A stretch of 64,000 nt of DNA from Patescibacteria group bacterium (GTDB lineage: Bacteria > Patescibacteriota > Patescibacteriia > UBA10025 > JAHIVO01): positions 64,403-128,402 of the forward strand of contig JAZDEZ010000021.1 of assembly GCA_043808365.1 (NCBI GenBank), written 5' to 3'. This document shows positions 2,057-59,220 of this stretch, piece after piece. Each line of letters opens with the position of its first letter. The first letter of the stretch is position 1. Below the pieces are notes generated by a model. The model was not told the DNA's origin. It was given only the letters and a program-made list of their open reading frames with translations, and made no database searches. Made by a program: the position numbers and the translations under genes.

Positions 2057-3610
2057 ATGACCAATCAAAAATATTTTCTCTACGCCCGCAAGTCCACTGA
2101 TGTAGAGGACAAACAAGTATTGAGTATTGAAGCGCAGATCGTGGAATTGCGCGCCTTTGCTAAAAAAGAAGGTCTAACAATCATTGAGGAATTAATTGAA
2201 AAGAAGTCGGCCAAAGTGCCCGGGCGCAAAATATTTAATGCCATGCTAGATAGAATAGTAAAAGGCGAAGCGCATGGCATTGTCAGCTGGCACCCAGACC
2301 GTCTGGCGCGCAATTCAGTGGATGGCGGGCGAATTATTTATTTGCTGGATACCGGCCAGCTTGCGGCTTTGAAATTTCCACAGTTCTGGTTTGAAAGCAC
2401 TCCGCAAGGCAAGTTCATGCTCAATATCGCCTTTGGGCAGAGTAAGTATTACATTGATTCATTAAGTGAAAACGTGAAACGAGGCTTGCGCCAAAAAGCT
2501 AGACGCGGAGAGTATTCAGGCATCGCTCCGATTGGCTACATTAACGACTTACGCACCAAAACTGTCGTAGTAGATAAAAAACAAGCCGAGATTGTCCAAC
2601 AGGCATTTGAACTGTACGCCCAGGGCAATTCTCGCCTAGAGGACATTTCCAGCTTTTTGGCGCGGCACAATATTACCTCGCGCAATGGTAAGTCACTAAA
2701 ACGAGACAGAATTTCTTTTATCCTTTCCAATCCTTTTTACGTTGGATTGTTTAGTTATGCTAAAGAACTCTATGAGGGCAAGCACCAGCCAGTCATCTCA
2801 AAGAAAATTTTTGACCAAGTGCAGGCAATACTGAAACAGAAAGGCAGACCGCACCACAAAACCAAGAATGAACCCCAACCCTATTGCGGTCTGCTGCGGT
2901 GTGCCACCTGCGGAATGGGCATAACTGGCGAAAACAAAGTGAAGCACCAAAAGAATGGCAACGAGCACCACTATATCTACTACCGGTGTACAAAAAAGAA
3001 CAAAGTAATTAAATGCAATGAGCCACATATCCGGCAGGAAGCAATGGATGAGCAAATCACACCGCTTATACAAAAATTTTCTTTGCGATCAGATTGGGCG
3101 GACAGCTTGTTACATCAACTAGAGCAAGACACTACAAAGTCCGCCCACTCCTCTGTTGCTTTTGTTCAAGAGACGAAAAACATCATTACCGCAATCGAAA
3201 CCAAGCTCCAGCGGCTACTGGATAGCTACCTGGAGCAGGATATTGACCGTGAAGCCTACCTAACGGCTAAGGCAGGACTCTTGAGCGAGAAAAAGACCCT
3301 GACGGAGAAAATAGTCCGTCTTGAACAAAAGCGGACTGGCTGGGTCGAACCGATGCGGAAATGGATACATACGGCAGCTCTGCTGCCGAAAATCGCGCGG
3401 GAGAGCGACCTTAATTCAAAAAAGGTCGCGGCCAAAGAAATCTTTGGCTCGAACCTCGTCCTGTCTTTCGGGAAAGTCCATCCTGTTCTAAATTTTCGCC
3501 CACAAAAACACTGGTTTGCCATATCCAGTGCCAGAGAGAAAATCGGGGAAATTTCACAAAGTTTGGTGATGGTAGCCCCACGGGGAATCGAACCCCGATT
3601 GTTGGCTTGA
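2057..3610 (+). CDS. large serine recombinase (resolvase/invertase N-domain + recombinase domain + zinc ribbon + coiled coil)
   Basis: 'YARKSTDVEDKQVLSIEAQ' catalytic Ser region, 'HPDRLARN', Cys cluster 'CATCG...YYRCTKKNKVIKC', and a C-terminal coiled coil. The ORF only stops inside the antisense of tRNA-Glu, so the last ~13 codons may not be native. Confidence 0.9.
   Translation: MTNQKYFLYARKSTDVEDKQVLSIEAQIVELRAFAKKEGLTIIEELIEKKSAKVPGRKIFNAMLDRIVKGEAHGIVSWHPDRLARNSVDGGRIIYLLDTGQLAALKFPQFWFESTPQGKFMLNIAFGQSKYYIDSLSENVKRGLRQKARRGEYSGIAPIGYINDLRTKTVVVDKKQAEIVQQAFELYAQGNSRLEDISSFLARHNITSRNGKSLKRDRISFILSNPFYVGLFSYAKELYEGKHQPVISKKIFDQVQAILKQKGRPHHKTKNEPQPYCGLLRCATCGMGITGENKVKHQKNGNEHHYIYYRCTKKNKVIKCNEPHIRQEAMDEQITPLIQKFSLRSDWADSLLHQLEQDTTKSAHSSVAFVQETKNIITAIETKLQRLLDSYLEQDIDREAYLTAKAGLLSEKKTLTEKIVRLEQKRTGWVEPMRKWIHTAALLPKIARESDLNSKKVAAKEIFGSNLVLSFGKVHPVLNFRPQKHWFAISSAREKIGEISQSLVMVAPRGIEPRLLA
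3391..3574. repeat. right arm of inverted repeat (3' end of recombinase gene up to the tRNA-Glu CCA end)
   Basis: Reverse complement matches 1870-2010 (see left arm). Confidence 0.8.
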
Positions 3611-3644
3611 AAAGCCAATGTCCTAACCATTAGACGATAGGGCC
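3570..3644 (-). tRNA. tRNA-Glu (anticodon UUC), CCA encoded
   Basis: Hand-folded cloverleaf: GGCCCTA/TC/GTCT-AATGGTTA-GGAC/A/TTGGC-TTTTCAA-GCCAA/CAAT/CGGGG-TTCGATT-CCCCG/TGGGGCT/A/CCA. Length is 75 nt. Confidence 0.9.
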
Positions 3645-3880
3645 GTGAAATTCTTCAGATAACGCTCAATGTGGCCAGATTTTTTAATCTTGAACTCTTT
3701 AACTCTTGCCAGTGAAAGTGTAGGGAACTTCTCTGTATGAATAAGTTTATAAGGTATGAAAGACTTTGTCGAACGAACTTTGCCTTGGTTATGTTTTATA
3801 ATGCGTTCATTGACATCCTCAGAAACTCCAACGTAGTACCTTCTTGCCTTAAAGCTTTTAATGATATAAAGATAAAACAT
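3600..3880 (-). mobile_element. putative GIY-YIG cassette carrying a replacement 5' segment of tRNA-Glu (boundaries approximate)
   Basis: The segment between the intact tRNA T-arm and the decayed duplicate of tRNA positions 1-~45 consists of the GIY-YIG ORF plus the functional tRNA 5' part. Confidence 0.35.
3623..3880 (-). CDS. GIY-YIG nuclease family protein (small, URI-domain type)
   Basis: 85 aa. 'FYLYIIKS...RYYVGVSEDVNERIIKHNQG' matches the GIY...YIG...R...H/N core of the family. The last 22 nt overlap the 5' end of tRNA-Glu. Confidence 0.8.
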   Translation of the reverse strand: MFYLYIIKSFKARRYYVGVSEDVNERIIKHNQGKVRSTKSFIPYKLIHTEKFPTLSLARVKEFKIKKSGHIERYLKNFTALSSNG

Positions 3881-4035
3881 ATATGTTGAAGGCTTGCCCC
3901 GCCGTACGGCGGGGTCCCGCCGAATGGCGGGAAAAAGCCAATGTCCCGCCCGCTTCGCCTGAAGCGAATCTTTGGCGGACGGGCCTAACCATTTCCGCCG
4001 AAGGCGGATCCGCCTTTGGCGGAAGGCATAGGGCC
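3881..4035 (-). pseudogene. decayed duplicate of tRNA-Glu positions 1 to ~45 interrupted by GC hairpins
   Basis: Minus-strand read: GGCCCTATG[hairpins 3994-4023]AATGGTTAGG[hairpin ~3947-3983]ACATTGGCTTTT[hairpins 3897-3932]CAAGCC. The D-stem 'CGTCT' is lost and no T-arm or 3' acceptor is present. It shares the upstream 'GTGA' flank with the intact gene. Confidence 0.7.
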
Positions 4036-8219: not shown

Positions 8220-8525
8220 TCAGACCTCCTGGGTTAGAGTTAATGTTTGTCCTCGAAAGACTTTTCAAAAGCGCTCGATGAGTTCGCGCCGTCTTTCAGG
8301 GTCGCCGTCAGCCGCGGCTTTTGTCGAGCCGAGTGCGGCGATCATCCATACGATCACGAGACAGCCGGCATGAGCCAGTTGTCCATTAATCGGTGCTACA
8401 TATGGAGCGATACCTCCTTTATGGTTATTGATTGTTAACGAGCTAAAAAGCCTGCCGTTACTTTACTACATACAGCAACAGCCGGCAATACATACAGAAG
8501 GGTCAGCCAAAAGCTGTCTGCAGAC

Positions 8526-14653: not shown

Positions 14654-15030
14654 CTTCTTGCCGGAGAAAATGTAGTTTTTATGTCGGAATGCGGTTCAGT
14701 CTAGAAGTGTTTTGATTCTGCTAGCTTGCGCAGCCCCGCTAGTCAGCGGGACTTCCAGCCGGAATCGGGAGTAGTTAATTTTCGGAGTGATTTTCAGATG
14801 AGCAAAGTTTTGATTCTGCTGGCTTGGGCAGCCCCGCCATCCGGCGGGACTTCCAGCCGGAGTCCAAGGTGATTTGCTCACAGAATGTTTTTCAACTGAG
14901 TAGTGTCTTTATCCTACTAGCTTGGGCAGCCCCGCCATCCGGCGGGACTTCTTGCCGGAGAAAATGTAATTTTTATGTCGGAATGCGGTTCAGTCTAGAA
15001 GTGTTTTGATTCTGCTAGCTTGCGCAGCAA
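14654..15030. repeat. tandem array, 98-bp period (about 4 units), starting inside the 3' end of the 14990..15658 gene
   Basis: Minus-strand TGA stops (written tca on the + strand) occur at 14696, 14794, 14892 and 14990, exactly 98 nt apart. Each is followed on the + strand by 12 conserved codons and, in the three orphan units, by a CCCGCC-ATCC-GGCGGG-type hairpin. 14654-14735 repeats 14948-15029 with 1 mismatch. Confidence 0.85.
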
Positions 15031-18022: not shown

Positions 18023-18052
18023 TCCGCCGGAGGCGGATCAGCCTCTGGCCGA
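18023..18052. repeat. pair of GC hairpins (TCCGCC-GGA-GGCGGA, TCAGCC-TCT-GGCCGA)
   Basis: Same TCCGCC...GGCGGA stem as the hairpins at 3994-4023 and 28521-28535. Confidence 0.5.
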
Positions 18053-47607: not shown

Positions 47608-50600
47608 TTAGAACAATCCGACCGTCACGAAGGTGACTATTTGAGAATAATTGCCAGCTACCGTATCGCTGGCAATGGCGGCCTGATAGCAGACCGTTGA
47701 GGTTTCGTCGGCTGGGCCTGATGTGGCGCCGGCCACGGCTTGTTGTGAAGTGGTCAGGGCGGTGACATTGTATGGCGCGCTCCCACAGCTTGCATCCTGG
47801 GTTATGGTTTGGCTGGCATCGGACGTGGCAATGCCATACCCTTCGGTCCCGGATGATAAAGTGCCGGTTGCTGAATTTATCGTGTTGCCGCCGTTAAGCA
47901 GGTCGCCATCCACGTAAACATAGGTCGCGTATCCGCTATCAGCACTGGTGACAGTCTGGATAGTGTGTGAAGCAGTCGCCACGCTCCCAGTCGCTAAGGT
48001 GCCCAGATTAAGGCTATTGGCGCTAAGCGTGAAGGTCAGGGCGGTAAAATCCCAACAGGTGTTGCCGGCGGAATTTTTATTGGAGACATGAGTGCCGTCA
48101 ATATCAGGCGGCTGGCCGCAGGCATAGGAGTCCTTGACGTCCGTATTCTTCACGGTCCGGGTGCCGGCAGAGTTCAGGTTCCAGGCACTGCCGCCGGCAG
48201 AACTGCGGAGGTAGACCCGGGTATGCTGGGCCTGGCCATTGAAGCTGATGTTTTGGAACGTATATGTATTGGTGGCAGTGAATCGCAGTTTTGTATTGGC
48301 CGTGGTAGCGGTAAACGTACCGGCCGTTTCAGCGCCGGCGGCGAATATGACTGACGGGGACGTGTCTGGATCCGAGCCGGAAGCATTGGTAATGGTCAAA
48401 TTATTGAATTTCCCGGTGGCACCGGTCAAAGTGCCGGAGAACGTTTGTTGGCTAGCGCCATCAGCAGTGACTGTTCCGGAGTTGGCCGTGAAGGTGTCGT
48501 TGTTTGTCCAGTTGCCGGCAATAGTGACGGCAAAATTTGATCCGCTCTTGGTGTCGAGCGTGCCGCCGGTGATCAGCAGGCTGCCGTTCACGTCCAGCGC
48601 CGAGTCGAGCTGGAAGGTGGCCGGTCCCCCGCCGTCGTTCAGCGTCAAGTTATTGAATGACGCGCTGGCCGCCCCGGTTGAGTTGATGGTCCTGGTGCCG
48701 GAAGCGGCATCGAGGGTGACGGTGCCGCTATTTGCCGTGAACGTGCCGGCGTTTGTCCAGCCAGCGCCCACGGTGAAGCTGGCCGTGGAGGAGGCTTGCA
48801 AAACGCCTGACCCGCCGATGGTGACGTCGCCGCCGACATCCAGTATCCGGTCATTCGTTTCATTGTCCATAGTGCCGGCAGTAACGTTCAAATTATTGGC
48901 TACCGTCAGCGTATTGGTGGCTGGCCGCCAGGTGCCGCCTGAACCGTTGAAGGTGAGTACGTAGAAGGCGGACGAGCCGGGGTTAATAGACTTCGGGCCC
49001 GATGTCGCATCGAAGGTAACGGTTCCATTGTTGTGGGTGAAGGCGCCGGCATTGGTCCACCCGCCAGCCACCGTGAAGCTGGCGGAGGCTGGAGCGGTAA
49101 AGGTAACATTGGCCGTACTGATATTGACATCTCCATTCACATCCAGAATGCGGTTAGCGGCATCGGTCACGGCCAGCGAGGTGCCGGCATTGGTCATGGT
49201 CAGGGCGTTGGCTACGGTGATGGTGCCGGTGTTTGTCCCGTTGAAAGTAATGGTCGGCGCTGTCGCGGCAGTATTGGTAAACGTCAGGTTATAAAAACTC
49301 CACGCAGTCGACCCGGCCACTTGGGCACCGAATGCCTTACTGGCACTGACTGACTGGGTAAACGTGTTCGTCCCCGCGCTGTTCATGGTAATGGTGCCGC
49401 ACGAGGCGCCGCACTGGACATTGCCGTTCACGGTGACATTGGCCGTGCCGGCGGCCGTATTGAACGTGCCGTTGGTCATGGTCAAATCGTTCGTTATCGT
49501 CATGGTGTTGGTAAGAGGCGACCAGGCTCCGCCACTGCCGTTAAAAATGACGTCGTAGAACGACGACGAGCCGGGATTGATGGTGTTGCCAGAATCCGTC
49601 GCGTCAAACGTTACCGGCGCTGTCCGGGCAGTGAATATGTCGCTGTTCAACCAGTTATTGCCGACATTGATGGCGTTGTTTTCGCCGGTCACCGTATCCA
49701 GCGTGCCGCCGGTGATAGTAAGGTCGTTTTTTACGACTAACGGATCCTCAACTTCAACAGTAAGGGAATTGCCTCCATCGTTGATCGTTAGGTTGTACAG
49801 AGCATAACTGTCGCCGCTTCCGTTCGTGATCAGATCGTCAGTTCCGGTGGTGCCATCGAATTGGACGGTCGACTGATCGTAGATGAATTGCCCCCCACTC
49901 TGGATATCAAACTCGTCCCCGGTGGTGATAAGGGATTCATCAGAATCACACCCAGCCCCTTCGCAGGTCGTTGCGTCGAGCGTCCCCTCGATTTGGATGC
50001 CGTTTGAACCGACGTCAACCTCATACCCGTCAGTTTCGAATACATCACCGGTCCTGACGCGTAGCCTGCTCGCTGCAAAATCGCTGTCGAGATTGGTAGT
50101 ATCGGGTGAAGTGCCAATTTCCACGCTGCCAATATCTTGCTTAACCGCAGTACCATCGGTATAAATCAGATCCCCGTCAAAAATTACCAAACCAGTTCCC
50201 GACGCTTTAGTGAAGGTCGTGCCGGCGCTGAGAGTGAAATCGTCCGCCACATTGAGATTGGCGTTCGCCGCCTGGGTAAAACCGCCGCTGGTTACTTTGA
50301 AAGTGCCGTTGACATCCTGGGCGTCGGCCGATGAAACGCTGCCGCCCGACACCTCGAAGTTCTGCAATGTCTGGCTGGCTGAGGTCAGGCTCTTTGAGGA
50401 GCCGTTCATTTTCAAAGTGTTGCCGGCCGTAGCGGTGTACGTGCCATTGGTGAAATTGACATTGCCGCCGACCGTCCAGATGCCCGTCCCAGAAGTGATG
50501 GCCGGGGTGGCGGATCCGCCCTTGGTAAAGGTGAGATCGCCGGTTGCGTTGACTGTCGGATTGACGGACGCGTCGAGCGTCAGAACCTGGCTCTGGCTCG

Positions 50601-53600
50601 CGCCGGTAATGACTTTCAGGCTGCCGTTAATTTGCTGGGTACCTGACGCCATGGCAATGGACCGAATAGCGGCCGTATCCGCGTACGCCTCGACGTCGCC
50701 GCCGTAGGTCCGGGCGTCAAAAGTGGTGTTCACCACATTGCCGCCGGTAGCGTCATAGCGGACTATCGCGGAAATCGTACCTTCAGTTCCCGGACCACTG
50801 GAAGTATTAGTAAACCGCAAAGTACCGGCTCCGGAAACCGTGTCAAACAAGCCAAATTCAGAACCAGTAACCGAGAAGGTGCGGCTAGCTGGAATAATTA
50901 AGTCACTATACAAGCCAGCTTCATAATTAGACACAGTCAGGTCAGTATTTTGGATAGTGACAGTATTGCTGTTCCCATTATTCAGCAACTTTGTAAAGGT
51001 TTCATTGTTAGCATCTATAGTTCCGTTACCGTACATGGCTAGTTGTGAAGAACCGGCATTAATTGTGGCGTTATTATTCACGTAAAAATTGCCCCATAAT
51101 CCAACGTCAACAGTATATTCTTGGGAGGTAGCCGGGCTGAGCTCTAAACTATGGAAACTGTAAGATGAAACATTAACCGAAGCGTCGCCAGTGAAACGGA
51201 AAGTGGAATCTTCTGTATCCACGTTGACCAGATGTAACTCATTAAGCGGAGTGATAGTATCGCCGGAGACTACCCAGAGCTTGGAACCCTGGGGAGCGGC
51301 TGAGATATAATGAACGCTAGAGCAAGTTTCTCCGCAATAACAATCCAGATCACTTAAAACATTAGCGACATTAATCTGGCCCGTGCCCAGCGCCGTGGCC
51401 TGGAAATCAGTTCCGTTGCAAACCCCATTCAAGCCAAAGGTTAGATTATTGAAATTCCAGGCAGTATTGCCGCTGAAATTACCAGTGCCGTTAAGCGTGA
51501 CGGTGCCGCCGGTCAGGGTAACCGTACCCGCGCCGGAAAAGTCGCCGCCCGAAACGGTGATGTTGTTAGTGCCGGACAGCGTACCGGCGGTAACCGTCAG
51601 GTCGCCGGCCAGCGTTGTGGCATCAGCGAATGACCAGCCGCCGCCCGTGCCGTTGAAAATGACATTCCTCCAATCGGATCCGCCGTCGGTGATGGTCCGG
51701 CCGGTCGTGGTGCTGTCAAAAGTCACCCAGCCGCTGTTGGCGGTAAACGTGCCGGAGTTGGTCCAGTTGCCGCCGACGGTGAAGGAGGCAGTGTTTGGCG
51801 CCTGCAGCGTGGTGCCGGCGCCTATCGACACGTCATTGCCCACGTCGAAGATCCGGTTATTGGTGTTGTTCTGCAGAGTAAGTGCCGTCCCACTGTTTGT
51901 TGTAGATAGATTGTTGGCCACGATAACCTGGCCGGTACCGGTGCCGTTTACGGTGATGGCATTGGTCCCCGAGGCGTTGGCGAACGTCAGGTTGTAGAAT
52001 GTCCAGTCGGTAGCGACGGCCACGTTGGTCCCGAACGCTTCAGCGGCGCTGACTGACTGGGTGAACGTATTGGTCCCCGCGCTGTTCATAGTTATCGTGC
52101 CACAGGAGGCGCCGCACTGGACCGTGCCGTTCACGGTGACGCTGGCCGTGCCGGTAGCAGTATTGAACGTGCCGTTGGTCATGGTCAAATCATTCGTTAT
52201 CGTCATGGTGTTGGTCAGCGGCGACCAGGCTCCGCCACTGCCGTTGAAAATGACGTTGTAGAATGACGATGCGCCGGGGTTGATGGTTTGGCCCGTAGCC
52301 GTGGAAGTGAAATTGACCGTACTTGTCGCGCCGGTAAAGGTAGCGGAATTAGTCCAGGATCCTGACACGTTGTAGGTCGCGGTCGTGGTGCTGGTCAGGG
52401 TGCCGGCATTGGTCAGGTCATGCGTATTCACGGCTTCTGATGATGCTCCAGCCACGGTCAGGGTGTTGGAGGCCAGGATGGCCATACCCTCGCTGGTGTA
52501 GCTGTTCGCTGGATTGGCTCCGCATCCGGCGTCCGTCCCCTCCACCTCCACGACGCTCGAGGCCACGCTGTGCATGACATCCTCGTCATTGGAGCAGGTG
52601 TACTGCGATAAATTCGTTACCGTGAGGCTCTGGTTATTTGCGGATCCGATGGTCAGGATGTTGGTATTCAGCGCCATGCCGGAAATGTTGCCGGAGCTGA
52701 ATTTGGTTGCGGCCGTTGACTCATTCGCGTCAGTGACGTTATCCACCCAGACGGTGACGACGTCGCCGGCTGTCGGCTCGGTAACGCCGGTAATGCTCCA
52801 GGTGTTGTTAGGCGCCGTGCTGGTCATGGTGGCAGTCTGTATTTGCGCCGCGCCGTTTACCGCGACTTTTACCGTGGCGCCATTGTTGCCGTTGGCGGTG
52901 CCGGCGATGTTGATGGTGGCTGACGGCCAGGTCCAGTTGGTGGTATTGCCGGAGTCGACGTTGGTGCCGTTGCTGGCGTTGATGGCGGCGCCCCCGCTGG
53001 CGTTGGAGTACGATACGTCAACGCGCGTCACGGTCGGGGCGTTGGTCACGTTGAATAGCCAGGCGATAGTGGTATCGCTGCGCAGGTAGACGTAGCTGGA
53101 GGCGGGGGCCAGGCTGACGGTGGCCGCCGCGAAGATGACGGAATTTTTGAATTGGATTTTGGAATCAGCCGTGCTGGCGGTGAAGGTGCCGGAGACGGTG
53201 TTGGCCGCCCCAAAGATGACCGACGGCGCCCAGGGCGAAACAGTGCCGCTGGCATTAGTCACGGTCAGGTTGTTGAATGTAGTAGTGCTATTCACGGTCT
53301 GCTGGGCAGAGCCATTCAGGGTGACGGTGCCGCTCGAGTGGGTGAACGTGCCGGAGTTGGTGAAGTTGCCGCTGATAGTCAGCGTCTGTCCGCTGGCGCC
53401 CGTGAGGGTGGCGGTAGCGCCGATAGACACGTTGCCAGTGACGCCCAGCGCGCCGGCGCCCTGGGTGAGCGCGCAGGCTGTCCCCGAGCCGACGGTCAAG
53501 TTGCCGCCGATGGTCGTGCCAGCAATGGTGGTGGCCGAGGCTGTGCCGGCCATGGTGAAGTTGCCGGTGACGCTGGTGATGCCGGTCAGCGTTTTCGCTC

Positions 53601-56600
53601 CGCTGCCGGACAGGCCCAAATGATAATAATTATTTGTCGTCGGTGCATGAACAGTTTGGCCAGCGCCCGTATAGTTGATAGTATTGGCTGCTGCTGCTGG
53701 AGTTAACGTGGTGATGCCGGATGTGCCGTTAATATTCAGGGTTGCGCCGCTCCCATTAGTCAGTCCGCCGGTGCCGCCCAAAGCCGTACTTACCGTAAAA
53801 GTGCCGTTATTGGTCACTGTCACCGTGGTGATGGTGGCAGTGGCAATGGCGACAGTGCCAGCCAGGGCTTGGCTGTTGGTGTTGAAAGTCGCCGTGCCGG
53901 TGATGGCCACCGATCCGGTACTGCTCTGGGTGATGCCGCCGCGCATAACAATGGCCGTACTCGCCCCGTTTAGCGTACCGCTGCTGACAGCCACCGCGCC
54001 GGTCAGAAGTTTGGTGCCGGTGTTGTTGTCCAGCGTCAGGGTGCCGCCGTTGACGGTAGTGGTGCCGGTGACGGTGAGCGCGTAGCCGGCAGTGGTGAGC
54101 GTGCCCAAGGTAACTGTCAAATTATGGGACACTGTTAATTCCGCCGCGGGCGACCAGCCGCCGCCCGAACCGTTGAAAACAACGTCATAAAAGAAAGATT
54201 CGTTGGAAATTGTTTTACTGCCCGCCGTGGCGTCAAAAGTGACAGTGCCGCCGCTTGCCGTGAAAAAAGCGCCGCCGCTCCAGCTGCCGCCCACGGTGAA
54301 GCTGGCAGTTGGGGCAGCGCTGAACTCAAGAACCGCGCCGCTCAGAGTGACATTGTTTCCCACGTCCAGAATCCGATTACAGGATGCATTGTCAACGACC
54401 ATGGCAGACCCGGTCTGAGTTATGGCAAAATTATTGCTGACGATTATTTGTCCGGTGCCAAGGCAGGCAAAACCAAGAGATGGTGCACTGTAAGTATTCG
54501 TCAAAGTCAGGTTGTAGAATGTCCAGTTAGTAGCGACGTCCACGTTGGTCCCGAACTCTTCAGATGCGCTGGCTACGCTTTGAGTGAAAGTCCCGCCGGT
54601 CATGGTGACGGCACCGCCACCTGTTACCGAGCCGCTGACCGTGATGTCAGAGATGCCGGACAGGGTGCCGCCGGTATTGACGGTTACGTCCCCGGTCAGG
54701 AGTTTGGTGCCGGTGGCGTTGCTGAAGATGAGGGAGCCGGTAATGCTCGATGTGCCGGTTACGGTGAAATTGAACCCGCCCGAGGTCAGCGCGGCGGTGT
54801 TGTCAATTTGCAGATTGCCGCTGACGGTGAAGTTAGCCGCGGTGGTAGCGGTGCAGGTGCCGGCCATAGTCAGGTTTCCAGCCACGGTGGTGATGTCAGT
54901 CAGGGTCTTCGCTCCGCTGCCCGAGAGGCCGAGGTGGTGGTAGGCGTTGTTATGGACGGTCTGCGCGGCGCCAGTGTAGTTTACGGTGTTCCCCGAAGCG
55001 GTAGCGGTCAGGGTGGTAATGCCGGAAGTGCCCCCGATATTCAGCGTGCCGGTGGCGGCATTCGTAAAGCCGCCCAGGCCGCTCAAAGCCGTGGCAGCCG
55101 TGACCGTCCCATTGTTGGTCAGGGTAATGCCCGAGTCAACAGTAAGCAGAGTGGCGACCGTCAACGTATTGGTATTGGCAGTCGCCGCTTGGATACTGAC
55201 GCTGGGGATTACCGTGGCGGTGGCGCCGCTGATGGTCTTGCTGGCGCCGGCAAAAATATGCACTCCGGTGCTGGCCGTCCAGGTGGTGGCATTATTGGTC
55301 AAGTTGCCGGTGAACGCGATATTCTCCGCCGCGGTTTCATTCCACGTGCCGCCGCTATTGACGGTTACGTCCCCGTAAAAGGATTTAGTGCCGGTGGCGG
55401 ACGAGACCGTCAGCGTGCCGGTGATGCTCGACGCGCCGGACACCGTCAGGTTGTGGGCGCCCACGGTCAGCAGCCCGCTCGCGTCAATGGTTAGGTTCTG
55501 GGCGACAGTGGTGGTGCCGCCGGTGGTCATGGCTCCGCTGTCGTCGATGTGCAGGCCGCCGGTACCCTGGGTGGTCACCGTACCGCCCGGCGCGTACGTT
55601 TTGCCTGTCCAGACGTGGAGCTCGATGTTTGAATTGGTTAAGTTGCCAGCGGTCAGTGCCGGAGAACCGGCCGTGTAATACAAAATATCCGTGTCGGCGT
55701 AGGTGCCGTAGCCAGTCAAAATTTGGGTGTTGGTAATGGACGAGCCGGTTTCGTACCGCACGATCAGCCGGTTCTGATACAGGTTGATGCCGGTCAGGCT
55801 GGAGCCGCTGCCGACGGTGACGGTGGTAGCCAGCGGCGTACCGGCGGTGTCCAGGTACAGGGTGAGGACATCGCCGCTGACCGTGGTGATGTTGGATATG
55901 GTGTAGGCGCCGCCGCTGACCGTGGCGGTGCAGGCGCCTCCGGAGCAGGCGGTATTGGTCCCGTTGACCAGCAGGCGGATGGTCGGGGTGCCACCGATGA
56001 GCGACGAGCCTTCGTCAGAGTACACGTTGCCGGCCACCGAGTACGTCGTGCCGCCGCTACACCCGCCGGCGTTCGTGCACTTGGCCAGGACGAAGTTCAC
56101 GTATGGCGGGGTGTGGTCGCTCCCGGCGGTGATGGTGGCGGTGACGGTGTGGGTGTGGTCATCCTGCGCAATATCTGTTCCGGAAGTGAAGTTGGCTTCA
56201 GACGTTGCGATTGCTCCGGAAGTAGCAGTCGCAGTGTCATCATGCGTGGCAGAGCCGCCCGTCCCGCTCTCGGTGGAATAGCCCTGGACAAAATTGTTCA
56301 AGTAGGGCGAGGCGTCAGAAATGACGTCCCAGCCGGTGCCGGGGTCGGCGTCGAACATGCCGATCACGTTCTGGGGGATGGGCTGCGGAGTGGCGTTGGT
56401 CTGCTGGTAAATCATGGTCTGGACGTACGGCGGGACGGATGTGGCACTGGTTGAGTTTGAGTTGGCTGGAGCAGTATGGGTATGCGAAGCTGCGGCGTAC
56501 GAAGGCGGGGCGGTCACTAGTACTAAAGCGACATTCGCCGTACCGACTGCCGCGGCCAGCGAACCCCACGAGGTCATGGCATGGGTGTGCGTATCGCTGC

Positions 56601-59220
56601 CGCCGGTGGTGTGGGAGTTGGTCAGCTTGACCAGCCGGCTGTCCGCCGCGGAGAAGCGGGTCCAGCTGCCGCTCTGGCTGGCTGAGGAGAACAGGAAAGT
56701 GTTCTGGGGGATAGTGGTTGGGTTCTGCGCGTCACTCTTCCATAGGTAAAAGGAGTGGTAAGCGGGGTCGTTATTTGCAGATCCTGCGGTCGGCGCTGTC
56801 GTAGTGTGGGTGTGGGCGTATGATGCCCGAGCGTTGCATCTTGAAACGCACGTGTGAGCGAGACCGCTGGTAGTTGCGCCGGCCGTGGCGCCGGTGACCG
56901 TCGGCGTATGTGTGGTGGCGCCGCCTGTGCCTCCGTAGGTAGCGGCACCGCGGAGAAACCGGGCGCTGGCGCCGTCGTAGGTGGTCTGGTTTGTCCAGCC
57001 GTCGGGATCGGTGCCGGAGGTAGCCAGCAGGTACATGTAGGCCGGATCGATCACGAGCTGCCAGGCGCGGTGCTCCTGCCAGTCCCCGACCTGCGCCGGG
57101 CCGAGGGTGTACAGCGCCGGGCTCTTCTCTGGCGACTTGAACGTGTACCCGAGCGTGACCGTACTGCCGGCTTTCAGGTCTACGTTCCACGCGATCAGGC
57201 GAACAACCTCCGTGCCGTTGAAATAGGGCTGGTTGTAGCCGCCGTGCTCTGGCCGAATATCGAAGTCTGCGGGAAACGCTTCCTGGATCGTCCCTTTGAA
57301 ATCATCGCGCACCGTCACTTCCAGCTTCATCGGCTGGTAGATGTTCGGGAAGACGCGGGTCGGGCCGGCGCGGTTAATGGTGTAGGCGGGCTGGTCTTCC
57401 ACGATGAGCGTGTCGGTGAGCGTACTGGTGTTGCCGCGCACGGTGGCGGCCAGGTCCAGGCTGTACGTACCGGACCGGGCGAGTTTTTCCCGGGCGACCA
57501 TGTCCTGTTTCAGGTACAGCTCCTTCTTGCCGCAAAAATCGGTGACCTCGATCGTCTGGTCCGCCGTGCGTTTGACGGTTTTTTTGCCGGCCGGGTCGGT
57601 GATAGTCAGCGTGACGTCCGCGTCGCACACGATGCCCCCGTGCTCGTCCAGAGCGCCGATGGAGAAGACGGCCGTGTCGCCTTTTTTATACAGGGACTGG
57701 TCCGGGTTCATGGCGAGCGCCCCCCAGATGAACGTCTCGGTCACGTCCTTGGTATAGCCATTTTGTTCGATCGAGGTGGTGACCGTGTATTGGCCGGGAG
57801 CGGACAGCGCGTCGGGATTGATGGCATAGGCGGCTGTGGTAACCCCGTCGGCGGTCGTGCTGGCTATGGCCGCGTCGACTTTCTTTTGCCGGCCGGCCGG
57901 ATCAGTCAGAGTGACTGACTTGACCTGCCGTTTGGTCGATGCCGCGCCAAGGAATGCCAGCTTGGATTTTTCCTCCACGGCCACATCCAGGGTAGGCGTC
58001 TCTTTTGCCGAAAAAGTTTTTTTATTAAGGGCGACGCTCTGGTCAATCTTGTCGACTGTTTTTTCCGAGGGAGGTTCGATGAGGGTGACGCGCAGGTTAG
58101 CGCCGTCTACATAGGCGGTGGCCGTCTGCGGGCCTGGCACGGCGTTATAATTTATTTTTATCCGCAATTTTTCCAGGTTTCGGATGGTGCCGATTTTTTC
58201 CGTCAGCGGGAACTCCCAGTACCCATTGTGCGTCGCGTTGCTTACCTTGGCGGACAGGGCGAATGAATCCAGCGTTTGCCAGGCGGCTCCAGCGTCCAAT
58301 GAATATGAAAAAGTCACGACATCTTCATTATTGGGGAAAGAGTCGCCGCCGAACGAGATGACGACTGCCGCGCTGTTAAGCAGGCTGTCCCCGGAGATTT
58401 CGCCGGGCAGTTGGAATCCGCTCAGTTCCAGGTTTGGGCTGCTCTGATCAAGCGATGCCGCTTCGGCTTCGGCGGCTGGGGCGGGGGCCGGGGACGGCGG
58501 CGCGTCAGCGGGCGGCACGACTGTCGGCTCTTCCGTCGGCATGTCAACGGCCGGCCCTTCCGCGAGTGCCGGGGCATCGGTTGCTTCTCCCTTTACCACC
58601 ACCGGCCGGTTGGTGTAGGTGGCGGAGTTTTTGTCAGTAAATGAAGCGGTATCGCCAGTGCTGAGGACATCCAGATGTTTGGCTTGGTTTGGGTTGGCCC
58701 AGCCGGTAGCTATATTCGGCTCCAGGGTCAGCAGTCTGGGTTGCGCCTGGGTAGCCTCGGCCCGCACTATGAAAATGTGGGCAAAGAAAAAAGTTTGGAT
58801 GATGAAAAAAGCGAACGCCACGGCCGCGATTGAATAGACGAAAAGAGAAAATTTCTTGCTGATGAGCAAGAGCTTGATTTTCGCGGCCGACCAGCCTGGT
58901 TTGAGGACATATTTCCCCCCATCGATCGGTTCGGGCAGTTTGGAGGCTGGCTGGGCCGGCTGGATTGGTTGCTCTAGGAGGCATATTTTTTGGATAGCCT
59001 CCTTTTCATACCGGCGATCCTTGCGGGCGCCGACACGGATTGCTTTCAGGCGGCCGGAGTCGTCCCAGTTGCGGAGGGTGTTCGGGTGGACGCTAAGGAT
59101 CTCACAAACCTGTTTGATCGTGAGTAGTTTTGGCAGGGCCAGCCAGTCAATATTCTTGGCTGTCTTGCCCCCAAGCAAAGTTGGTTTTTGTTTTTTGCCG
59201 CCCTTGGAGAAAAAAGTCAC
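47608..59220 (-). CDS. giant (3,870 aa) surface protein: N-terminal MerR/excisionase-type HTH, one TM helix, Ig-like modules, tail-collar-like HTH-T/PPY motifs, ~2,500 aa beta-helix-like repeats, shared C-terminal domain
   Basis: Single uninterrupted ORF with a GTG start. HTH: 'LLTIKQVCEILSVHPNTLRNWDDSGRLKAIRVGARKDRRYEKEAI'. TM: 'FSLFVYSIAAVAFAFFIIQTFFFAHIFIV'. Repeats are of the type 'FNGSGGAWSP...LTVT.GTL'. All + strand ORFs in this span are antisense artefacts. Confidence 0.85.
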   Translation of the reverse strand: MTFFSKGGKKQKPTLLGGKTAKNIDWLALPKLLTIKQVCEILSVHPNTLRNWDDSGRLKAIRVGARKDRRYEKEAIQKICLLEQPIQPAQPASKLPEPIDGGKYVLKPGWSAAKIKLLLISKKFSLFVYSIAAVAFAFFIIQTFFFAHIFIVRAEATQAQPRLLTLEPNIATGWANPNQAKHLDVLSTGDTASFTDKNSATYTNRPVVVKGEATDAPALAEGPAVDMPTEEPTVVPPADAPPSPAPAPAAEAEAASLDQSSPNLELSGFQLPGEISGDSLLNSAAVVISFGGDSFPNNEDVVTFSYSLDAGAAWQTLDSFALSAKVSNATHNGYWEFPLTEKIGTIRNLEKLRIKINYNAVPGPQTATAYVDGANLRVTLIEPPSEKTVDKIDQSVALNKKTFSAKETPTLDVAVEEKSKLAFLGAASTKRQVKSVTLTDPAGRQKKVDAAIASTTADGVTTAAYAINPDALSAPGQYTVTTSIEQNGYTKDVTETFIWGALAMNPDQSLYKKGDTAVFSIGALDEHGGIVCDADVTLTITDPAGKKTVKRTADQTIEVTDFCGKKELYLKQDMVAREKLARSGTYSLDLAATVRGNTSTLTDTLIVEDQPAYTINRAGPTRVFPNIYQPMKLEVTVRDDFKGTIQEAFPADFDIRPEHGGYNQPYFNGTEVVRLIAWNVDLKAGSTVTLGYTFKSPEKSPALYTLGPAQVGDWQEHRAWQLVIDPAYMYLLATSGTDPDGWTNQTTYDGASARFLRGAATYGGTGGATTHTPTVTGATAGATTSGLAHTCVSRCNARASYAHTHTTTAPTAGSANNDPAYHSFYLWKSDAQNPTTIPQNTFLFSSASQSGSWTRFSAADSRLVKLTNSHTTGGSDTHTHAMTSWGSLAAAVGTANVALVLVTAPPSYAAASHTHTAPANSNSTSATSVPPYVQTMIYQQTNATPQPIPQNVIGMFDADPGTGWDVISDASPYLNNFVQGYSTESGTGGSATHDDTATATSGAIATSEANFTSGTDIAQDDHTHTVTATITAGSDHTPPYVNFVLAKCTNAGGCSGGTTYSVAGNVYSDEGSSLIGGTPTIRLLVNGTNTACSGGACTATVSGGAYTISNITTVSGDVLTLYLDTAGTPLATTVTVGSGSSLTGINLYQNRLIVRYETGSSITNTQILTGYGTYADTDILYYTAGSPALTAGNLTNSNIELHVWTGKTYAPGGTVTTQGTGGLHIDDSGAMTTGGTTTVAQNLTIDASGLLTVGAHNLTVSGASSITGTLTVSSATGTKSFYGDVTVNSGGTWNETAAENIAFTGNLTNNATTWTASTGVHIFAGASKTISGATATVIPSVSIQAATANTNTLTVATLLTVDSGITLTNNGTVTAATALSGLGGFTNAATGTLNIGGTSGITTLTATASGNTVNYTGAAQTVHNNAYHHLGLSGSGAKTLTDITTVAGNLTMAGTCTATTAANFTVSGNLQIDNTAALTSGGFNFTVTGTSSITGSLIFSNATGTKLLTGDVTVNTGGTLSGISDITVSGSVTGGGAVTMTGGTFTQSVASASEEFGTNVDVATNWTFYNLTLTNTYSAPSLGFACLGTGQIIVSNNFAITQTGSAMVVDNASCNRILDVGNNVTLSGAVLEFSAAPTASFTVGGSWSGGAFFTASGGTVTFDATAGSKTISNESFFYDVVFNGSGGGWSPAAELTVSHNLTVTLGTLTTAGYALTVTGTTTVNGGTLTLDNNTGTKLLTGAVAVSSGTLNGASTAIVMRGGITQSSTGSVAITGTATFNTNSQALAGTVAIATATITTVTVTNNGTFTVSTALGGTGGLTNGSGATLNINGTSGITTLTPAAAANTINYTGAGQTVHAPTTNNYYHLGLSGSGAKTLTGITSVTGNFTMAGTASATTIAGTTIGGNLTVGSGTACALTQGAGALGVTGNVSIGATATLTGASGQTLTISGNFTNSGTFTHSSGTVTLNGSAQQTVNSTTTFNNLTVTNASGTVSPWAPSVIFGAANTVSGTFTASTADSKIQFKNSVIFAAATVSLAPASSYVYLRSDTTIAWLFNVTNAPTVTRVDVSYSNASGGAAINASNGTNVDSGNTTNWTWPSATINIAGTANGNNGATVKVAVNGAAQIQTATMTSTAPNNTWSITGVTEPTAGDVVTVWVDNVTDANESTAATKFSSGNISGMALNTNILTIGSANNQSLTVTNLSQYTCSNDEDVMHSVASSVVEVEGTDAGCGANPANSYTSEGMAILASNTLTVAGASSEAVNTHDLTNAGTLTSTTTATYNVSGSWTNSATFTGATSTVNFTSTATGQTINPGASSFYNVIFNGSGGAWSPLTNTMTITNDLTMTNGTFNTATGTASVTVNGTVQCGASCGTITMNSAGTNTFTQSVSAAEAFGTNVAVATDWTFYNLTFANASGTNAITVNGTGTGQVIVANNLSTTNSGTALTLQNNTNNRIFDVGNDVSIGAGTTLQAPNTASFTVGGNWTNSGTFTANSGWVTFDSTTTGRTITDGGSDWRNVIFNGTGGGWSFADATTLAGDLTVTAGTLSGTNNITVSGGDFSGAGTVTLTGGTVTLNGTGNFSGNTAWNFNNLTFGLNGVCNGTDFQATALGTGQINVANVLSDLDCYCGETCSSVHYISAAPQGSKLWVVSGDTITPLNELHLVNVDTEDSTFRFTGDASVNVSSYSFHSLELSPATSQEYTVDVGLWGNFYVNNNATINAGSSQLAMYGNGTIDANNETFTKLLNNGNSNTVTIQNTDLTVSNYEAGLYSDLIIPASRTFSVTGSEFGLFDTVSGAGTLRFTNTSSGPGTEGTISAIVRYDATGGNVVNTTFDARTYGGDVEAYADTAAIRSIAMASGTQQINGSLKVITGASQSQVLTLDASVNPTVNATGDLTFTKGGSATPAITSGTGIWTVGGNVNFTNGTYTATAGNTLKMNGSSKSLTSASQTLQNFEVSGGSVSSADAQDVNGTFKVTSGGFTQAANANLNVADDFTLSAGTTFTKASGTGLVIFDGDLIYTDGTAVKQDIGSVEIGTSPDTTNLDSDFAASRLRVRTGDVFETDGYEVDVGSNGIQIEGTLDATTCEGAGCDSDESLITTGDEFDIQSGGQFIYDQSTVQFDGTTGTDDLITNGSGDSYALYNLTINDGGNSLTVEVEDPLVVKNDLTITGGTLDTVTGENNAINVGNNWLNSDIFTARTAPVTFDATDSGNTINPGSSSFYDVIFNGSGGAWSPLTNTMTITNDLTMTNGTFNTAAGTANVTVNGNVQCGASCGTITMNSAGTNTFTQSVSASKAFGAQVAGSTAWSFYNLTFTNTAATAPTITFNGTNTGTITVANALTMTNAGTSLAVTDAANRILDVNGDVNISTANVTFTAPASASFTVAGGWTNAGAFTHNNGTVTFDATSGPKSINPGSSAFYVLTFNGSGGTWRPATNTLTVANNLNVTAGTMDNETNDRILDVGGDVTIGGSGVLQASSTASFTVGAGWTNAGTFTANSGTVTLDAASGTRTINSTGAASASFNNLTLNDGGGPATFQLDSALDVNGSLLITGGTLDTKSGSNFAVTIAGNWTNNDTFTANSGTVTADGASQQTFSGTLTGATGKFNNLTITNASGSDPDTSPSVIFAAGAETAGTFTATTANTKLRFTATNTYTFQNISFNGQAQHTRVYLRSSAGGSAWNLNSAGTRTVKNTDVKDSYACGQPPDIDGTHVSNKNSAGNTCWDFTALTFTLSANSLNLGTLATGSVATASHTIQTVTSADSGYATYVYVDGDLLNGGNTINSATGTLSSGTEGYGIATSDASQTITQDASCGSAPYNVTALTTSQQAVAGATSGPADETSTVCYQAAIASDTVAGNYSQIVTFVTVGLF
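49343..49583. repeat. 241-nt intragenic repeat, copy B
   Basis: Aligns without gaps to 52046-52286, roughly 85-90% identical by eye. It encodes 'INPG.SSFY.VIFNGSGGAWSPLTNTMTITNDLTMTNGTFNTA.GTA.VTVNG.VQCGASCGTITMNSAGTNTFTQSVS'. Confidence 0.8.
52046..52286. repeat. 241-nt intragenic repeat, copy A
   Basis: See 49343-49583. Confidence 0.8.

Follow-up and report, generated by a model that had tools for sequence, protein, structure and literature searches.

Why should the gene of a small GIY-YIG nuclease lie between an intact transfer RNA (tRNA) gene and a disrupted, partial copy of the same gene? The question is raised by a locus on contig JAZDEZ010000021.1 of a Patescibacteria group bacterium (assembly GCA_043808365.1), of which a stretch of 64,000 nucleotides (nt), here called the window, was analyzed. 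On the minus strand of the window a promoter is followed, in this order, by a partial tRNA-Glu copy with hairpins, a GIY-YIG open reading frame (ORF) of 85 codons and an intact tRNA-Glu. A preliminary description of this DNA had proposed that the ORF and a tRNA 5' segment form a cassette that inserts near the variable loop, restores the gene with its own 5' part and leaves the resident 5' part to decay. Much of that idea has held up, in that we found the association with tRNA genes, the presence/absence polymorphism and the lateral movement expected of such a cassette; the decay, the fixed insertion point and an I-TevI-type enzyme were not found. We assign a probability of roughly 55% to the reading that the locus belongs to a widespread family of miniature selfish cassettes, which occupy bacterial tRNA genes and spread by a homing-type process, and that it is an old member with both vertical and lateral inheritance. 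Such a cassette, ~0.3-0.45 kb in size, would consist of an ~80-residue UPF0213/Slx1-like GIY-YIG gene between two copies of the same tRNA, one of them the functional gene and the other silenced by GC-rich (double) hairpins in its loops and often truncated.

The association between this ORF family and tRNA genes extends far beyond the window. A word-index protein search returned one homolog (P0001), and exhaustive HMMER searching returned 3,540 representative clusters at E <= 1e-3. We surveyed the 80 best loci in species-representative genomes, using a 12-sequence alignment as the query. Among 79 independent loci, 63 had a same-strand tRNA within 120 nt of the ORF. The tRNA was immediately downstream of the ORF in 50, and in 29 of those 50 the stop codon of the ORF was inside the tRNA, which is the association with tRNA 5' ends that the cassette proposal had called for; at 14 loci the tRNA was immediately upstream. 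More than 10 tRNA species are represented, with Glu, Arg, Ser, Gln, Tyr, Ala, Met, Cys, Pro, and Lys downstream of the ORF and Thr and Gly added by the upstream class. The hosts belong to at least eight phyla (Patescibacteria, Bacteroidota, Ignavibacteria/Chlorobiota, Gammaproteobacteria, Planctomycetota, Margulisiibacteriota, Elusimicrobia, and others), and the arrangement recurs in hundreds of independent assemblies, including the complete genome AP035880.1 of the cultured Flavobacteriaceae bacterium GF1 (L034, at tRNA-Met). In 17 of 150 HMMER representatives the C-terminal residues were exactly those that the 5' end of a real tRNA would encode, compared to 0.15 in shuffles.

A second tRNA copy on the other side of the ORF was sought by gap-tolerant alignment of the adjacent tRNA to the 350 nt across the ORF (z >= 5), with two kinds of control flank, those of other tRNAs and the far one of the same tRNAs (n = 202 in all). 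Such a copy was present at 37 of 62 loci versus 21 of the 202 control flanks (odds ratio 12.8, p = 2e-14). Where the intact tRNA is downstream, the copy begins at position 1 and stops between positions 22 and 75, while at the 14 loci with an upstream intact tRNA the downstream copy is a 3' part (e.g., 8-75 or 54-88), a range that is at odds with insertion near the variable loop as a rule. Close ORF relatives were found in both configurations. As both configurations exist, with copies of either the 5' or the 3' part, the general form is tRNA-ORF-tRNA, in which one copy or the other has been inactivated. Such an inactive copy is in other respects near-identical to the live tRNA (74/75 in L022 and 66/68 in L039), and an intact tRNA gene is always present beside the cassette. 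In a conserved Thr-Tyr-Thr tRNA array of Candidate Phyla Radiation (CPR) genomes, the GIY-YIG ORF is upstream of tRNA-Tyr in L040, L063, L019, and L073 and downstream of it in L054, a placement consistent with retention of either flanking copy or with independent insertions.

The cassette is variably present at one and the same tRNA sequence. A metagenome scan for the exact 41-mer at the 5' end of tRNA-Glu gave 61 distinct loci with at least 450 nt of upstream sequence, of which 43 (~70%) were without an upstream copy, 14 (~23%) had a partial copy but no ORF and four, or six if short or duplicate contigs are included, had both ORF and copy (~7-10%). Presence/absence polymorphism at a conserved site, a hallmark of free-standing homing endonuclease genes (HEGs) for which the preliminary description had suggested looking, is therefore present at tRNA-Glu. 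The ORFs at tRNA-Glu loci represent at least three divergent lineages (87-100% and ~50% identity to the P0001-, P0010-, and P0025-types). Across the survey, an ORF and its nearest neighbor shared the tRNA type in 38 of 62 cases (expected 0.14) and the host phylum in 33 of 62 (expected 0.28), the latter being the weaker link. There are cross-phylum pairs of ORFs on the same tRNA, and switches of tRNA type occur at ~70% identity.

Two other Patescibacteria assemblies have the same locus. One, L001, is a metagenome-assembled genome (MAG) with the same architecture, whose ORF product (P0001) is 76% identical to that of the window and also ends in ALSSNG; the other, L092, is a metagenome contig in which a serine recombinase, tRNA-Glu, the GIY-YIG ORF, the partial copy and Hsp20 are syntenic with the window at ~84% nucleotide identity. 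Because these cassettes are orthologous, the arrangement is real and inherited and not an assembly artifact. Comparison of the three loci also revealed a phylogenetic conflict. The tree of Hsp20 and orf72 joins the window to L092 with L001 outside (Hsp20 nonsynonymous divergence, dN, of 0.11, 0.44, and 0.50; synonymous divergence, dS, saturated; dS values above about 1.5 are taken as saturated throughout), whereas the ORF tree joins L092 to L001 with the window outside. Between L092 and L001 the ORF has a dS of 0.52 and a dN of 0.06; for the flanking genes, Hsp20 and orf72, the same pair shows saturation and a dN of 0.5-0.9. Four informative tRNA sites (15, 28, 42, and 44) join L092 to L001, as does the ORF. 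The 3'-side tRNA differences for L092 number only two, both L001-specific singletons and so uninformative as to a chimeric tRNA with a cassette 5' part and a resident 3' part. Sliding-window identity is mosaic and breaks where the copy meets the ORF and again at the 3' end of the tRNA, which is the pattern expected of recombination via tRNA-derived arms. Based on the conflict of the ORF and the diagnostic tRNA bases with the phylogeny of the flanking genes, these data indicate lateral exchange bounded by tRNA-derived sequence. Between the window and L001, the cassette has 76% amino acid identity and the neighboring genes 56% and 37%.

The features of the locus are listed in Table 1. The intact tRNA-Glu, the ORF and the partial copy are where the preliminary description had placed them, and its account of three insertion sites with five hairpins and of a lost D-stem strand (tRNA-Glu positions 9-13) proved accurate. 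The copy, given there as the first ~45 nt of the tRNA, is indeed a partial 5' copy, although we could trace it only as positions 1-41, and the start codon of the ORF (3880) does not follow it directly as had been stated, since 10 nt (ttcaacatat) lie between CAAGCC and the ATG. The final seven codons of the ORF plus its stop are positions 1-22 of the intact tRNA-Glu, with the TAG in the D-loop; the overlap of 22 nt is as first reported. That tRNA is a functional gene abutting the ORF, and the ORF is the sole GIY-YIG copy in the window. The predicted transcription start from the sigma70-like promoter (~4040) is the first base of the partial copy. The promoter is presumed to be the native one of tRNA-Glu; its -35 element, TTGACC, is kept in L001 and is directly upstream of the intact tRNA-Glu in the cassette-free locus L105. 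Both copies in the window are preceded by TCAC, a shared flank to which attention had been drawn; this holds in the window, but the intact copy is preceded by TTAT in L001 and TGTG in L092, and the match is probably a coincidence of a variable codon.

Table 1. Features of the tRNA-Glu locus and other features of the window (positions in the window; a slash between two tRNA positions or motifs marks an insertion point).
Feature	Position	Strand	Description
Sigma70-like promoter	4075-4047	minus	TTGACC, 17-nt spacer, TACTAT; 9 of 12 match
Partial tRNA-Glu copy	4039-3881	minus	tRNA positions 1-8, 14-23, 22-35, and 36-41; exact collinear blocks
Block 1	4039-4028	minus	TCAC + GGCCCTAT (tRNA-Glu positions 1-8), 12 nt; exact
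Site I double hairpin	4024-3993	minus	TTCCGCCAAAGGCGGA + TCCGCCTTCGGCGGAA; replaces tRNA positions 9-13
Block 2	3993-3984	minus	AATGGTTAGG, 10 nt; exact match to tRNA-Glu
Site II nested hairpin	~3983-3946	minus	Outer stem CCCGTCCGC/GCGGGCGGG, inner TTCGC-TTCAG-GCGAA
Block 3	3946-3933	minus	GGACATTGGCTTTT, 14 nt; exact match to tRNA-Glu
Site III double hairpin	3932-3897	minus	TCCCGCCATTCGGCGGGA + CCCCGCCGTACGGCGGGG; between anticodon positions 35 and 36
Block 4	~3896-3891	minus	CAAGCC; tRNA-Glu positions 36-41
GIY-YIG ORF	3880-3623	minus	85 amino acids; Pfam PF01541, E = 1.6e-10
Intact tRNA-Glu(TTC)	3644-3570	minus	CCA-encoding; ARAGORN; Rfam tRNA 66.5 bits
Serine recombinase ORF	2057-3610	plus	Resolvase, Recombinase, and Zn_ribbon_recom domains
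Inverted repeat arms	1870-1994 and 3450-3574		125 nt, 92% complementary
Three tandemly spaced repeats	14720-14960		Intergenic; ~98 nt each, a CCCGC(T/C)...GCGGG hairpin then ACTTCCAGCCGGA
Isolated double hairpin	18023-18052		TCCGCCGGAGGCGGA + TCAGCCTCTGGCCGA; ~30 nt upstream of an ORF starting at 18082
tRNA-Val to tRNA-Ala	28930-27905	minus	Several hairpin-interrupted tRNA copies
Val-like copies	28759-28641 and 28634 to ~28500		Double hairpins after TTAG (10/11), at 35/36, and in the T loop
Ala-like copy	28029-27940		Double hairpin after TTAG; ~40 nt upstream of the intact tRNA-Ala
Long ORF	47608-59220	minus	Single ORF of 3,870 amino acids, 11.6 kb

No Rfam tRNA match to the partial copy was found even at E <= 10, and by score the duplicate is not a functional tRNA, in line with its first description as decayed. 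A second functional tRNA or an intron-bearing tRNA was rejected on the same ground and because the 3' half and positions 9-13 are lost. A group I intron or other known RNA was likewise rejected, as there was no Rfam intron or other such family in the region at either the gathering or a permissive threshold and a complete, uninterrupted tRNA follows the ORF. Despite its disruption the copy is not decaying, contrary to the fate proposed for a displaced resident 5' part. Its tRNA-derived bases agree with those of the intact tRNA of the same genome at 35/35 positions in the window and at 41/42 and 40/42 in the other two genomes, and the stretch with hairpins II and III is 91-97% identical between the window and L001 (sliding windows). 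Since the tRNA bases are near-identical although the ORFs differ by a dS of 0.5-1.9, the copy is constrained or homogenized.

Five of the 23 GC-rich perfect-hairpin calls in the window are concentrated in the ~130 nt of the partial copy. The site II hairpin is placed after tRNA position 22 (GGTTAG/GAC), and site III is exactly at 35/36 when the insertion is read as in Table 1, ending 16 nt short of the ATG. Occupancy differs among the three orthologous loci, with sites I, II, and III filled in the window, II and III in L001, and III plus a different D-loop site in L092, where II is empty; the insertion at 35/36 is common to all three. The hairpins thus turn over fast. The double hairpin at site I is missing from that site in both L001 and L092, the latter having a different double hairpin after position 13, and for this reason it is a recent gain.

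In the survey as a whole, hairpins recur at the same cloverleaf sites: after positions ~10-13, after position 21 or 22 directly ahead of GAGC or GAC, at 35/36 in the anticodon loop and at 56/57 in the T loop (context GGTTC/RAATCC). The site II position also bears double hairpins in L005, L008, L033, L083, and L042, and position 35/36 bears double hairpins of different sequence in L041, L025, L057, L055, L032, and L042. The hairpin sequences are lineage-specific, with CCTGCCTGCCGGCAGGCAGG in Bacteroidota and TCCGCC-AAA-GGCGGA + YCCGCC-TYY-GGCGGR, CCCGCC..GGCGGG or TCCCGAC..GTCGGGA in CPR hosts, where one double-hairpin type is found at different tRNA sites in different genomes. The density of hairpins across the ORF from the tRNA is 5.8 per kb versus 0.49 per kb in the rest of the loci (12-fold), and the last hairpin ends 7-46 nt ahead of the start codon in 31 of 36 loci. 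By a strict definition perfect hairpins are absent from 27 of 63 survey loci (e.g., L116 and L097). Sense-strand G.T and A.C mismatches, which bear on whether the hairpins function at the RNA or the DNA level, number 3 and 6 respectively. The ORF-less tRNA-Glu copies have no GC hairpins, but this comparison is confounded by their AT-rich host genomes. Seven such loci (L093, L094, L096, L099, L102, L109, and L110) are in AT-rich relatives and have a copy 40-110 nt upstream of tRNA-Glu; they share a 16-nt D-loop insertion, CAAGTTAGAATATAGC, and an anticodon arm turned into a perfect palindrome, GGCTTTTCGAAAAGCC, as though lengthened at position 36; none of the seven has GC-rich hairpins. Elsewhere in the window, the isolated double hairpin in Table 1 is of the same type as those in the copy, and this hairpin family is therefore dispersed outside tRNA-like DNA too. 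The window also has an intergenic series of three hairpin-bearing repeats (Table 1).

The ORF product matches PF01541 with a score of 41.5 bits (cut-off 22.6). Among 47 homologs, conservation is complete or at least 90% at Y5, Y16, G18, R26, H30, N31, and E62; of these, the catalytic Y5, Y16, R26, H30, and E62 are invariant or nearly so. An AlphaFold2 (AF2) model with a predicted local distance difference test (pLDDT) score of 95.7 has strands at residues 2-9, 15-20, and 44-52 and helices at 23-31 and 55-68, which is the beta-beta-alpha-beta-alpha fold. The profile of the 47 homologs ranked PDB structures as UPF0213 (1zg2, 6e-15; 1ywl, 5e-13), SLX1 (4e-7 to 2e-5), and I-TevI (6e-3), and Foldseek gave the same order (UPF0213, Slx1, I-TevI, UvrC). 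By these comparisons the protein groups with the UPF0213/Slx1-like clade, nearer to it than to the homing endonuclease and UvrC clusters, and it is a bare UPF0213/Slx1-like catalytic domain rather than a homing endonuclease of the I-TevI type. Similar to UPF0213 (BH0048 and EF2693) and Slx1, it is a bare beta-beta-alpha-beta-alpha core with conserved Y, Y, R, H, and E, but Slx1 requires Slx4 and has a zinc-finger domain. The conserved region of 78 residues is the catalytic domain alone, and the final seven residues are tRNA-encoded. Searches of NCBIfam, PHROGs, and PADLOC gave no meaningful match, hence no sign of a phage or defense-system protein, and no relatives of the ORF were found on viral contigs. 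A dN/dS of ~0.10, at the dS of 0.5-1.9 noted above for the window, L001, and L092, points to strong purifying selection on the ORF.

How might such a cassette spread? In the homing-type process that we favor, the nuclease would break a cassette-free tRNA gene, or its folded DNA, and the break would be repaired from a cassette-bearing allele with the tRNA-derived flanks serving as near-universal homology arms, as the mosaic breakpoints suggest. Insertion into an essential gene would be tolerated because the host retains an intact tRNA. As regards the target, the intact tRNA is regenerated and the second copy is hairpin-disrupted. Expression of the ORF is probably parasitic on the tRNA promoter, and where the stop codon is inside the tRNA, processing by ribonuclease P (RNase P) would compete with translation and might keep the level of the nuclease low. 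The hairpin-laden copy might serve as a homology arm, as a leader or stabilizer of the mRNA, as protection of the repeat from deletion or cleavage, or as a structure recognized by the nuclease.

A more specific form of this reading is possible but tentative, and we consider it rather less likely than not to be correct. It holds that bare Slx1-like nucleases drive pan-bacterial minimal mobile elements that recognize tRNA genes by DNA structure, cut in the D, anticodon, or T loops and spread across phyla via tRNA arms. The targets would be cloverleaf or cruciform DNA, or single-stranded loops, rather than a sequence, and the double hairpins in the loops could be footprints, immunity marks or recognition elements. 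Under this proposal, too, expression of the nuclease would be linked to RNase P processing through the stop codon within the tRNA.

Several points weigh against the homing-type cassette. No strictly isogenic pair of empty and occupied alleles was recovered among the loci compared; L105, tried as a clean empty site, shares the TTGACC promoter and the Hsp20 neighbor but has ~600 nt of other DNA between them, and was set aside. The protein has no DNA-binding module (NUMOD or helix-turn-helix, as in I-TevI and Seg) and no further Pfam domain, and cleavage of tRNA genes by the UPF0213/Slx1-like clade is something that we infer. There is also a problem of homing immunity, as an intact, restored tRNA would retain any target within the tRNA. 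Partial copies occur without the ORF, in ~10% of the control flanks as well as at the 14 tRNA-Glu loci, and the window itself has several hairpin-interrupted tRNA copies between tRNA-Val and tRNA-Ala with no GIY-YIG ORF (Table 1), which may be relics of lost cassettes or targets of hairpins acting in trans. Because such ORF-less copies exist, including hairpin-bearing ones, neither the duplication nor the insertion of hairpins strictly depends on a resident ORF. Finally, the survey loci are the nearest relatives (36-76% identity) within the ~3,540 clusters, most are from MAGs, and the control sets are modest.

Two of the rival explanations are very improbable in our view. The layout A-X-A-B is the formal expectation if the 5' half of the tRNA had simply been duplicated in tandem and an unrelated ORF lay between the copies by chance, and upstream copies without an ORF at 14 of 61 tRNA-Glu loci agree with it. 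This alternative, offered in the preliminary description, is refuted by the survey as a sufficient explanation: it does not tell why members of one ORF family should be enclosed by tRNA copies in at least eight phyla and at more than 10 tRNA species, why second copies are enriched (p = 2e-14) or how the lateral exchange and the incongruent phylogenies came about, and we regard it as the most improbable of those considered. Also very improbable is that the partial copy is an att-type duplication made by a site-specific recombinase, with the ORF as cargo, even though integrating elements classically generate partial tRNA copies (10.1101/2022.07.05.498093), a large serine recombinase abuts the tRNA 3' end both here and at six or more other tRNA-Glu loci, and L001 has a duplicate of the tRNA 3' end. 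That recombinase is found 3' of the tRNA rather than in the duplicated segment, and it has 125-nt inverted repeats of its own; it is missing from the cassette-bearing L001 and present at cassette-free loci. Nothing but the GIY-YIG ORF is found between the tRNA repeats, and an island of the integrase type was rejected on these grounds. The tight ORF-tRNA layout of 63 of 79 loci likewise has no integrase within the 0.3-0.45-kb unit.

The other two explanations seem to us unlikely, though less so than the former pair. A host-serving, tRNA-linked nuclease that is co-transcribed with tRNAs for regulation and inherited mainly vertically, with the copies and hairpins as by-products of recombination, would account for the strong purifying selection, for the conserved partial copy and for a cassette that has been kept since the window/L001 split at a higher identity than its neighbors. 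Prokaryotic Slx1-like domains are moreover fused to, or in operons with, methyltransferases of the TrmH and COG4123 types, and an RNA role for these domains was suggested (PMC1564403). Such a nuclease should hardly be confined to ~7-10% of identical tRNA-Glu genes, however, nor would one expect its sites to include more than 10 tRNA species, with closely related ORFs on different ones, and the ORF and host phylogenies are incongruent. A disrupted second copy that is six times commoner than in control flanks is a hallmark of insertion, unlike a stable operon. A similarly doubtful proposal is that the structure-specific GIY-YIG nuclease mobilizes or processes GC-rich double hairpins, as RAYT proteins do for repetitive extragenic palindromic (REP) sequences and REPINs, with redundant tRNA copies as the preferred landing pads (single-stranded loops, cloverleaf DNA) and the spread of the ORF secondary. 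It draws on Slx1 being among the near relatives of solved structure, a cutter of branched and stem-loop DNA according to PMC6902002, and on the 12-fold enrichment of hairpins next to the ORF with the last one so regularly just before the start codon. The occurrence of one double-hairpin type at various tRNA sites, the turnover between close relatives and the hairpins elsewhere in the window (18023-18052, the Val-Ala spacer, and 14735-14946) also agree with it. Its weaknesses are the cassettes without perfect hairpins (L116, L097; 27/63 by the strict definition), the lineage-specific hairpin sequences beside a conserved ORF and the lack of hairpins on the tRNA side of the ORF; alone, it leaves the tRNA duplication and the tRNA-type fidelity of the ORF lineages unaccounted for.

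The homing-type cassette has its closest counterpart in the mobile ORFs (mORFs) of fungal mitochondria (Allomyces macrogynus atp6; Glomus atp6, atp9, cox2, and nad3), in which an endonuclease ORF travels with a replacement for the end of the gene and may run in frame with the host gene, without a stop codon of its own (PMC3630166). In both systems a free-standing endonuclease ORF (GIY-YIG in atp9) resides in an essential gene and is accompanied by a second version of the gene part that is displaced, the gene stays functional with the other copy beside the ORF, and there is evidence of horizontal origin. The combination of an ORF with a duplicated gene part, one copy functional and one displaced, is thus found here, and the four informative tRNA sites follow the lineage of the ORF as a foreign part should, yet the displaced copy does not diverge. 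Unlike mORFs, the cassettes have a bacterial chromosomal tRNA gene instead of a mitochondrial protein gene as host, duplicate either the 5' or the 3' part, encode an ~80-residue bare UPF0213/Slx1-like domain and retain a non-functional copy that is conserved, with loop-specific hairpins. The T4 protein SegB is encoded by a GIY-YIG gene that is likewise embedded among tRNA genes; it cleaves the tRNA region of a related genome and is inherited preferentially with its flanks by intronless homing (PMC2330249). SegB, however, is a phage protein, no tRNA duplication or hairpin-laden copy was reported for it, and the C-terminal DNA-binding module of I-TevI-type homing enzymes (PMC1564403) is lacking from the 78-residue domain here. 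An analysis in 2006 of gene neighborhoods in the prokaryotic Slx1-like cluster did not report an association with tRNA genes (PMC1564403). Partial tRNA genes of prokaryotes have been attributed to integrase elements of 9-120 kb or to CRISPR (10.1101/2022.07.05.498093). Prophages, integrative and conjugative elements and islands that target tRNAs are of that size, carry an integrase and usually duplicate the 3' part, unlike the ~0.3-kb insert here with its nuclease gene only, its usually duplicated 5' part and its hairpin insertions.

Mitochondrial GC clusters and double-hairpin elements, and REP/REPIN sequences with RAYT, are short mobile GC-rich palindromes that are gained and lost between close relatives and accumulate in non-essential DNA, and GC-rich hairpins of mitochondria co-occur with endonuclease ORFs. 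The short GC-rich (double) hairpins of the cassettes likewise come and go between close relatives. In contrast to those systems, they are at defined loop positions (~10-13, 22/23, 35/36, and 56/57) of a redundant tRNA copy. A system of the REP/RAYT type itself was rejected, as the protein is a GIY-YIG nuclease and not a HUH Y1 transposase and the hairpins are on one side only; a link between hairpins and the GIY-YIG protein is putative. Mobile GC-rich palindromic elements are treated in PMC4478555 and PMC7218506.

The cassettes are best classed as homing-type mobile ORFs with target-gene duplication. Four features appear to be new, namely the clade of the nuclease, the class of target (chromosomal tRNA genes of bacteria), the conservation of a hairpin-laden copy and the breadth across phyla. 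The statement in the preliminary description that no system of this kind was known stands for the bacterial cassette, of which we found no description in the full-text literature searched, which leaves out most subscription journals so that a prior description is possible; it does not stand for the general design, which is known from fungal mitochondria. If confirmed, our reading would give a function and a life-style to the orphan family of UPF0213-like small GIY-YIG proteins (~3,500 clusters at 50% identity), which are annotated everywhere merely as "GIY-YIG nuclease family protein." It would mean that essential bacterial tRNA genes are colonized by ~0.3-kb selfish cassettes through gene-part replacement, so far documented for mitochondrial protein genes, and would account for partial tRNA genes and tRNA-like fragments of a kind that confuses annotation and is now ascribed to large integrase elements. 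With nothing but universally conserved tRNA sequence required as homology, genes could also flow by this route among Patescibacteria and other phyla. The cassettes would further offer a very small nuclease that may choose its target by structure, as well as a natural case of protein expression gated by tRNA processing. The loop-specific hairpin insertions, with their fast turnover, are an unexplained phenomenon in their own right.

On the 3' side of tRNA-Glu, the window has the serine recombinase referred to above. The inverted repeat that brackets it begins exactly at the terminal TACCA of tRNA-Glu; the last ~13 codons of the recombinase ORF are antisense tRNA, and its C-terminus is within the right arm of the repeat. 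Homologs of the recombinase are at equal spacing from tRNA-Glu in L092, L142, L125, L143, L114, L106, and L099. The recombinase looks like a second, independent element, invertible or integrative, that uses the 3' end of tRNA-Glu. In L001 (positions 8312-8452 of that locus), ~115 nt of unrelated DNA separate the intact tRNA-Glu from a second tRNA 3' end downstream (TCGGGGT-CCCCCGTGGGGCTACCA, with the T loop deleted), after which comes the flank shared with the window; this 3'-side duplication is independent of the GIY-YIG cassette.

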